The position numbers and the translations under genes were made by a program. From assembly GCF_003334785.1 (NCBI RefSeq), contig NZ_QOWV01000014.1: a stretch of 64,000 nt of DNA; one strand, written 5' to 3'. Every line of letters begins with the position of its first letter. Positions within the stretch are counted from its first letter, which is position 1. Positions 63,059 to 63,165 of this stretch are shown piece after piece. The stretch is from Escherichia coli. Its GTDB lineage: Bacteria > Pseudomonadota > Gammaproteobacteria > Enterobacterales > Enterobacteriaceae. Under the pieces are notes generated by a model. The model did not search any database, was not told the origin of the DNA, and saw nothing but the letters and a program-made list of their open reading frames with translations.

Positions 63059-63165
63059 TGCCGGATGCGGCGTGAACGCCTTATCCGGCCTACAAAAATC
63101 TTGCCAATTCAATATATTGCAGGACCATGTAGGCCTGATAAGCGTAGCGCATCAGGCAGTTTTGC
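63059..63165. repeat. BIME: two inverted REP units between fepA and entD
   Basis: tgccggatgcggcgtgaacgccttatccggcctacaaa followed by aggcctgataagcgtagcgcatcaggca in opposite orientation. Confidence 0.85.

Follow-up and report, generated by a model that had tools for sequence, protein, structure and literature searches.

Based on our analysis, we consider it likely that two identical 38-bp sequences in a 64-kb stretch of Escherichia coli DNA are consensus copies of the Y-type REP, of which the one between fepA and entD belongs to a BIME-1 acting as a 3'-end barrier or partial attenuator, and the solo one between cstA and ybdD is a 38-bp insertion/deletion unit. One repeat has met two fates within 22 kb: one copy is frozen genus-wide and has an mRNA 3' end mapped to it, and the other is gained and lost as an exact 38-bp unit.

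REPs and BIMEs of E. coli K-12 have been catalogued for decades, and both elements described here are already known and annotated. Our literature search found no text joining fepA and entD with 'repetitive extragenic palindromic'. What is added here is the BIME-1 subtype, its fixation throughout the genus, the proposed replacement of an ancestral hairpin, the position of an RNA 3' end inside the Z1 REP, and the 38-bp empty site of the cstA-ybdD copy. These additions would not surprise a specialist and carry little weight as a discovery.

Genomic setting

The analysed DNA (64,000 nt of contig NZ_QOWV01000014.1, referred to as the window) corresponds to positions 609274-673273 of E. coli K-12 MG1655 in reverse complement, so that an MG1655 coordinate equals 673274 minus the window coordinate; this map was verified. 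The window differs from MG1655 at 1 of 4227 nt in one compared stretch and at 0 of 5001 nt in another. The sole difference in the compared fepA-entD stretch is a G at window 60984, where MG1655 has an A at 612290. The change affects fepA codon 69 at its first position and is probably missense; the source of the window may be a K-12 relative rather than MG1655 itself. The features relevant to this study are as follows:

60780-63020 (+): fepA coding sequence, from the RefSeq annotation mapped on the window; upstream of the element
63021-63058 (+): left flank, from the fepA stop codon to the Y REP; locus-specific and conserved, with an inverted-repeat arm at 63031-63044
63060-63093 (+): Y-type REP, core of the 38-mer at 63059-63096; 0 mismatches to the consensus, CTAC at the 3' end on the fepA-entD sense strand
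63076-63145 (+): predicted cross-paired long hairpin in the fepA mRNA, 3' arm of Y with 5' arm of Z1 across the linker
63094-63128 (+): L linker, 35 nt, between Y and Z1
63107-63119 (+): IHF-like core ATTCAATATATTG, 1 mismatch to the IHF consensus WATCAANNNNTTR
63129-63157 (-): Z1-type REP, inverted relative to Y; 0 mismatches to the Z1 consensus, GTAG end towards the linker
63158-63171 (+): T-rich tract AGTTTTGCGTTTG, directly past the Z1 hairpin
63161-63194 (+): right flank, up to the entD start codon, with the other inverted-repeat arm at 63167-63180
63195-63815 (+): entD coding sequence, the downstream gene, in the same operon as fepA
41125-41162 (+; MG1655 632112-632149): second copy of the 38-mer, a solo Y REP (REP55) between cstA and ybdD, both on the minus strand

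The fepA-entD spacer is 174 nt long and contains the first copy of the 38-mer; entD starts 37 nt past the end of the BIME-1. The entD reading frame is open upstream across the entire BIME-1 to a GTG at 63045, which gives a mechanical ORF of 256 aa (63045-63815, +) compared with the annotated 206 aa. This constitutes an annotation trap, as gene callers could over-extend entD into the repeat.

The 38-mer as a Y-type REP

The original prediction described the 38-mer, TGCCGGATGCGGCGTGAACGCCTTATCCGGCCTACAAA, as identical at two loci in the same orientation. An exact-match search of the 64-kb window bears this out: the sequence occurs 38/38, with no mismatches, at 41125-41162 and 63059-63096, both times on the plus strand. 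No further place in the window matched it with up to 3 mismatches, 100 shuffles gave 0 such matches, and it is the sole exact repeat of at least 25 nt in the window in either orientation.

That both copies are REP units, as was also claimed, agrees with the published E. coli REP consensus. The Y-type consensus GCCGGATGCGGCGTGAACGCCTTATCCGGCCTAC is matched without mismatch (34/34) at both loci; the same 34-nt consensus is printed in PMC12306157 and is common to 224 of the 356 annotated REP elements. The 38-mer was present in 5426/5426 complete E. coli genomes, and BLAST found near-identical matches at 40 or more places in the median genome. The Y REP folds into 8+4 bp with a 1x1 internal loop, followed by CTAC, i.e. 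an imperfect palindrome with an internal mismatch and a tetranucleotide foot, and an internal mismatch together with a GTAG/CTAC foot is what TnpAREP requires for recognition (PMC3333891). Both copies are extragenic and lie between annotated genes. We see no difference from the Y-type REP or palindromic unit (Stern 1984; Gilson and Bachellier nomenclature; EcoCyc), a 34-nt imperfect extragenic palindrome with a CTAC/GTAG foot and dozens to hundreds of copies. Judged by their sequence, both 38-mers are therefore classified as consensus copies of this unit, which is the commonest E. coli intergenic repeat family. They are identical because each still equals the master sequence of the family, and the two loci are not thereby connected.

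The distance of at most 15 nt between stop codon and REP, quoted in PMC12306157 for REP-dependent down-regulation of translation, is exceeded at both loci. Between the fepA stop codon (last base 63020) and the REP (first base 63060) there are 39 nt, and REP55 lies 116 nt past the cstA stop codon.

The fepA-entD element as a BIME-1

The fepA-entD copy had been described as part of an inverted pair (BIME). This description can be sharpened: the partner at 63129-63157 (-) is a Z1 REP and not a second Y, and the CTAC and GTAG ends of the two REPs both face the linker. The feature had been extended to 63165, which has to be corrected, as the element stops at 63157/63158 and the remainder is T-rich flank. 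No further REPs were found near the Y/Z1 pair, which makes it a single unit. Per E. coli genome, the linker together with the REP tails recurs a median of 8 times (maximum 23).

A BIME-1 is defined as z1 plus y in a single unit with a long conserved L linker, frequently with an IHF site (PMC3333891), and we assign the fepA-entD element to this class (RIP/RIB) on its nucleotide arrangement. It shares with BIME-1 the inverted Y and Z1 REPs, the long conserved L linker with an IHF-like sequence, the occurrence as a single unit and the position after a gene. It differs in lying inside an operon and not at the end of a transcription unit, and the IHF site here is a predicted one. A REPIN, the mobile unit of RAYT transposases, likewise consists of two inverted REPs able to form one long hairpin; the fepA-entD element, however, combines two subtypes (Y and Z1) and has not moved from its site within the genus.

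The linker also matches a family of small RNAs. Positions 63095-63136 (+) score 40.5 bits against Rfam RF02751 ES036 (CssrF), above the gathering score of 37.6, so the linker passes the family threshold without being an orthologous sRNA gene. The CssrF sRNA was described between dacB and yhbZ in Shigella, and we reject an ES036/CssrF gene at fepA-entD, since the described gene lies at that other locus and the match is to the common BIME-1 linker. In essence the ES036 model consists of the BIME-1 L linker and the GTAG end, and it will probably match every BIME-1. This is a second annotation trap: the Rfam 'sRNA' is in fact a BIME-1 linker. A literature search for 'ES036' retrieved no relevant paper. 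The Y REP itself gave a sub-threshold Rfam match to naRNA4, the REP325-derived RNA. Further Rfam matches in the window are the rnk leader (29153-29261, +), a cspA-type thermoregulator (15725-16167, -) and STnc70 (34474-34567, -).

A locus-specific inverted repeat, AGATTGTTGACAAA / TTTGTCATCAGTCT (63031-63044 / 63167-63180; 14 nt, 86% complementary), encloses the BIME-1. We rejected this inverted repeat as part of a larger mobile unit, as the flanks are essentially single-copy, and its formation of an RNA helix is unsupported, since 2 of the 3 observed changes break a pair.

RNA structure and the mapped 3' end

Folded alone, the Y hairpin has a predicted energy of -21.3 kcal/mol (z -4.6) and the Z1 hairpin of -12.9 kcal/mol (z -2.3). 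In the fold of the whole 174-nt spacer (-72.1 kcal/mol, z -6.3), Y pairs with Z1 as one composite hairpin. The inverted repeat behind this cross-pairing is 15 nt long and 93% complementary, and the RNA 63055-63148 folds with -44.9 kcal/mol (z -7.8).

A 3' end has been mapped to this element by Term-seq. Adams et al. 2021 (PMC7815308; Supplementary files 1 and 3) list an end at MG1655 610126 (-) for the M63 glucose, OD 0.4 condition; it is supported by 31462 reads on average, is classified as 'orphan' and lies 47 nt upstream of the entD ORF. This position equals window 63148, as confirmed on the printed sequence, which reads ...GATAAGCGTAGC before and GCATCAGGCA after the end, and falls within the Z1 REP. 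Neither hairpin foot (63093 for Y, 63157 for Z1) coincides with this end, which is 3 nt past the cross-paired stem 63076-63145. An end inside the second REP suggests cross-pairing between the two REPs. It comes from one growth condition in one study and from a repeated sequence, for which read mis-mapping is possible when judged from the table alone. By blocking PNPase and RNase II, stable stem-loops determine where transcripts end at steady state (PMC6061677), and the pattern at 63148 agrees with this. The original prediction that the copy serves as a 3' stabiliser of the fepA transcript gains support from this published end within the element, the stabilising function itself being what we infer from it.

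The element as a probable barrier or partial attenuator within an operon

In the literature, fepA and entD are regarded as one Fur-regulated operon, whose expression is described as raised by a mutation in the fepA promoter. As the 3' end lies inside the element and entD follows downstream in the same operon, the BIME-1 is most likely a 3'-end barrier or partial attenuator rather than a full terminator. The earlier suggestion of a terminator therefore stands in the partial sense only; termination in full is argued against by the position of entD, 37 nt past the element and in one operon with fepA, and by the lack of a canonical terminator in our scan (see below).

We infer an exonuclease block, attenuation, the cross-paired conformer and IHF binding at fepA-entD, and the mechanism would be as follows. 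The transcribed BIME-1 would fold into a very stable structure, most likely the long hairpin of the Y 3' arm with the Z1 5' arm. This hairpin would halt 3'-to-5' exonucleases, so that a stable mRNA of fepA alone, with its end at window 63148, would be left. Partial termination at the Z1 hairpin and the U-rich tract, or termination further downstream, could generate the ends of its precursors, and RNA polymerase that reads through would supply entD. The expected outcome is more FepA than EntD message from a single promoter.

REPs are known to act elsewhere as exonuclease barriers and partial terminators. The fepA-entD element resembles the malE-malF REP (Newbury 1987), the BIMEs studied for attenuation (Espeli 2001) and REP325 of yjdM-yjdN (Harris 2026): in each case a REP lies between co-oriented genes of one operon, an RNA 3' end is found at the structure and the upstream gene is expected to be favoured. 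According to the Harris 2026 preprint, the REP325 array both stabilises the upstream message and partly terminates transcription. REP325 has 12 hairpins, as compared with 2 at fepA-entD. The same preprint reports that REPs do not lengthen half-lives uniformly and that 2-4 hairpins are not always enough for Rho-dependent termination. In its RNA-seq data, the log2 fold changes of fepA/entD were 1.0/1.45 in one comparison and 2.15/2.19 in another, and the mean counts (347.6 for fepA and 67.0 for entD) amount to an approximately 1.4-fold difference per nucleotide, under non-inducing conditions.

A possible DNA-level role of the linker

Another view of the element is that its main role is exerted at the DNA level, i.e. 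that the L linker binds IHF (RIP/RIB), bending the DNA or insulating supercoiling at the fepA end, and that effects on RNA are secondary. An IHF site in the linker is probable, as the motif differs from the IHF consensus at 1 position and BIME-1 linkers often carry such a site. Variation within Escherichia points in the same direction. In 14 Escherichia sequences the Y REP and the 16-nt linker core that includes the IHF site (63106-63121) are invariant and both ends of the linker vary, and the changes at the linker ends do not keep the predicted apical RNA stem. However, the window shows no excess of IHF-like 13-mers (63 observed, 52 expected), and the mapped RNA 3' end would be left unexplained by IHF binding. 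A predominantly DNA-level role therefore appears rather unlikely to us, although it is compatible with the barrier or attenuator function and not exclusive of it.

Full termination and a separate entD promoter as an alternative

It might also be proposed that the BIME-1 is a full fepA terminator and that entD is transcribed from its own promoter. The RNA 3' end maps within the element, a U-rich tract, AGUUUUGCGUUUG, comes after the Z1 hairpin, and some other genera have hairpin and T-run terminators at the same position. A comparable arrangement exists at MG1655 430963 (-), outside the window, where a BIME-1-like Z1 REP of identical sequence is followed by AATTTTACGTTTT, which resembles the AGTTTTGCGTTTG tract after the fepA-entD Z1. 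A second Term-seq end lies at this site inside the U-tract past the REP, between GGCAATTT and TACG, so 3' ends can also be marked by a Z1 REP with a U-tract. It may be that a T-rich tract recurrently accompanies Z1 REPs.

Yet an intrinsic terminator should have its RNA end in the U-tract behind the hairpin, and the end mapped at fepA-entD is inside Z1. The stem of the Z1 hairpin is bulged, and it could still serve as a weak or partial terminator together with the following tract. A scan of 62500-64000 found no canonical intrinsic terminator, the scanner admitting no bulged stems, and no sigma-70-like promoter was found in the same interval. The treatment of fepA-entD as a single Fur-regulated operon, raised by a fepA promoter mutation, and the parallel changes of both genes in RNA-seq also argue against separate transcription of entD. 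We therefore regard full termination as improbable and retain the barrier or partial attenuator as the preferred function.

Regarding Rho, the regions reported by Adams et al. 2021, which are derived from LB data, include none near 610.1 kb. REP55 is among the rows listed in the Harris 2026 table of Rho-binding sites near REPs and fepA-entD is not, an absence that means little.

Conservation in Escherichia and the spacers of other genera

The unique left flank together with the Y REP and the linker was found in 5426/5426 E. coli genomes. Among 80 FepA loci of other species, all five Escherichia genomes (E. whittamii, E. albertii, E. coli and two other species) have Y and Z1 REPs in a spacer of 173-174 nt, and no Y/Z1 REPs were found at fepA-entD in other genera. 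The Y REP core 63060-63093 is unchanged in all five. The only changes in Z1 are G63133A and C63157T in E. albertii, which are compensatory (G-C to A-U) in the stem of Z1 itself and break one pair of the cross-paired structure. A covariation analysis over 10 spacer sequences was nearly uninformative, as the REPs hardly vary.

Within Escherichia the spacer differs at 0-5.7% of positions; the corresponding values are 12-25% for third codon positions of fepA and 4.5-16% for entD as a whole (Fisher p 2e-5 to 8e-12). The flanks are as conserved across Escherichia as the REPs. The left flank 63021-63058, which is essentially single-copy, shows 0-1 changes per 38 nt across the five species, and the single-copy flanks together show 0-2 changes per 72 nt, to be set against the 12-25% for third codon positions. 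Alternatively, the spacer could be conserved for IHF binding or for control of entD translation.

In Salmonella, Citrobacter, Klebsiella, Kluyvera and others, the spacers are mostly 45-68 nt long, and their hairpin is another one (CCCTCTCCC-loop-GGGAGAGGG). Of the 64 non-Escherichia fepA-entD spacers, 62 have a stem of 7 bp or more just past fepA (median fold z-score -3.8), in some cases followed by T-runs. Thus a stem-loop immediately after fepA is kept by position, and the element that supplies it differs between genera. The spacers of Enterobacter, Lelliottia, Pseudenterobacter and Huaxiibacter (L035, L043, L046, L059, L040 and L042) contain 1-4 tandem composite units of ~80 nt, each made of AAAACGGCAACCCnGTTGCCGTTTTT, a terminator-like hairpin, and CTCCCTCTCCCTGTGGGAGAGGGCCGGGGTGAGGGC, with a copy number that differs by species. 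This array looks like a BIME-like mosaic of another repeat family.

A more specific proposal can be put forward tentatively, and we regard it as possible while leaning towards doubt. The cross-paired, REPIN-like hairpin (63076-63145), and not two separate REP hairpins, would fix the fepA 3' end at 63148; it would have been co-opted in the ancestor of Escherichia, replacing the CCCTCTCCC/GGGAGAGGG terminator-like hairpin still present behind fepA in other Enterobacteriaceae, and would since have been under purifying selection as a device setting the FepA:EntD transcript ratio.

The element could, in principle, be a selfish repeat mobilised by the RAYT (TnpAREP), with no host function at this site and with a conservation due to homogenisation among REP copies. 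REPs and BIMEs are indeed substrates of TnpAREP (PMC3333891), the REPs are the least variable parts of the spacer, and REP55, the sister copy, is present in some strains and missing from others, with an empty site of precisely 38 bp. On the other hand, all 5426 E. coli genomes and the five Escherichia species have the fepA-entD element at one and the same site. Its flanks are conserved as well, although as single-copy sequence they have no other copies from which they could be homogenised. The unrelated hairpin kept at the same place by other genera and the RNA end mapping to the element also speak against a purely selfish repeat, which we consider very unlikely. A 3'-end barrier or partial attenuator remains the reading that we favour for the fepA-entD copy.

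The cstA-ybdD copy as a 38-bp insertion/deletion unit

The second copy was named REP55 in the supplement of Harris et al. 2026, where it is placed at 632116-632149. At least 80% of the region 41050-41180 is kept in 3830 of the 5426 E. coli genomes. Strain AST240 has the K-12 sequence minus exactly 38 nt, the missing piece being the 38-mer, with a boundary ambiguous by the TG on both sides. This empty-site allele occurs in 29 genomes; other strains have a diverged REP without the neighbouring repeat, or neither element. Among strains, the solo REP55 behaves like a separate unit of 38 bp that is inserted or deleted as a whole. Its precise presence or absence is at most indirect evidence of binding and cleavage by TnpAREP (RAYT).

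The two copies are approximately 22 kb apart on the same strand of the window. Local transcription is opposite, fepA-entD being on the plus and cstA-ybdD on the minus strand, and consequently the two mRNAs carry complementary versions of the REP. Their shared identity covers exactly 38 nt, and the adjacent bases differ on both sides at both loci. If a genome has 30-50 near-identical copies, a 64-kb window should contain 0.4-0.7 of them, and the probability of two or more is 0.07-0.15, so that two copies in one window are unremarkable. In the whole window, three REPs were found in 64 kb, compared with ~8 expected from 584 REPs per 4.64 Mb.

Perfect identity over such a short distance might be taken as a sign of a specific duplication of, or gene conversion between, the fepA-entD and cstA-ybdD loci, but this is almost certainly wrong, since the identity stops exactly at the borders of the repeat, the 38-mer is present at further loci in every E. 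coli genome, each copy equals the family consensus, and the fepA-entD copy is fixed and ancient whereas the cstA-ybdD copy is polymorphic. A segmental duplication of the two loci is refuted by the missing similarity of the flanks and by the genome-wide copy number.

A second intergenic repeat, CCCCTCGCCCCACCGGGGAGAGGGTTAGGGTGAGAGGG, adjoins REP55 at 41163-41262, with a hairpin at ~41186-41209; E. coli genomes contain this repeat at 13 places in the median. It resembles the 'boxC' family. A cstA 3' end was mapped by Term-seq at 632098 (+), i.e. window 41176, in LB at OD 2.0 (Adams et al. 2021, PMC7815308); it lies just past the boxC-like hairpin and not at REP55. The hairpin type of the CCCCTCGCCCCACCGGGGAGAGGGTTAGGGTGAGAGGG repeat is also found after fepA in non-Escherichia genera.
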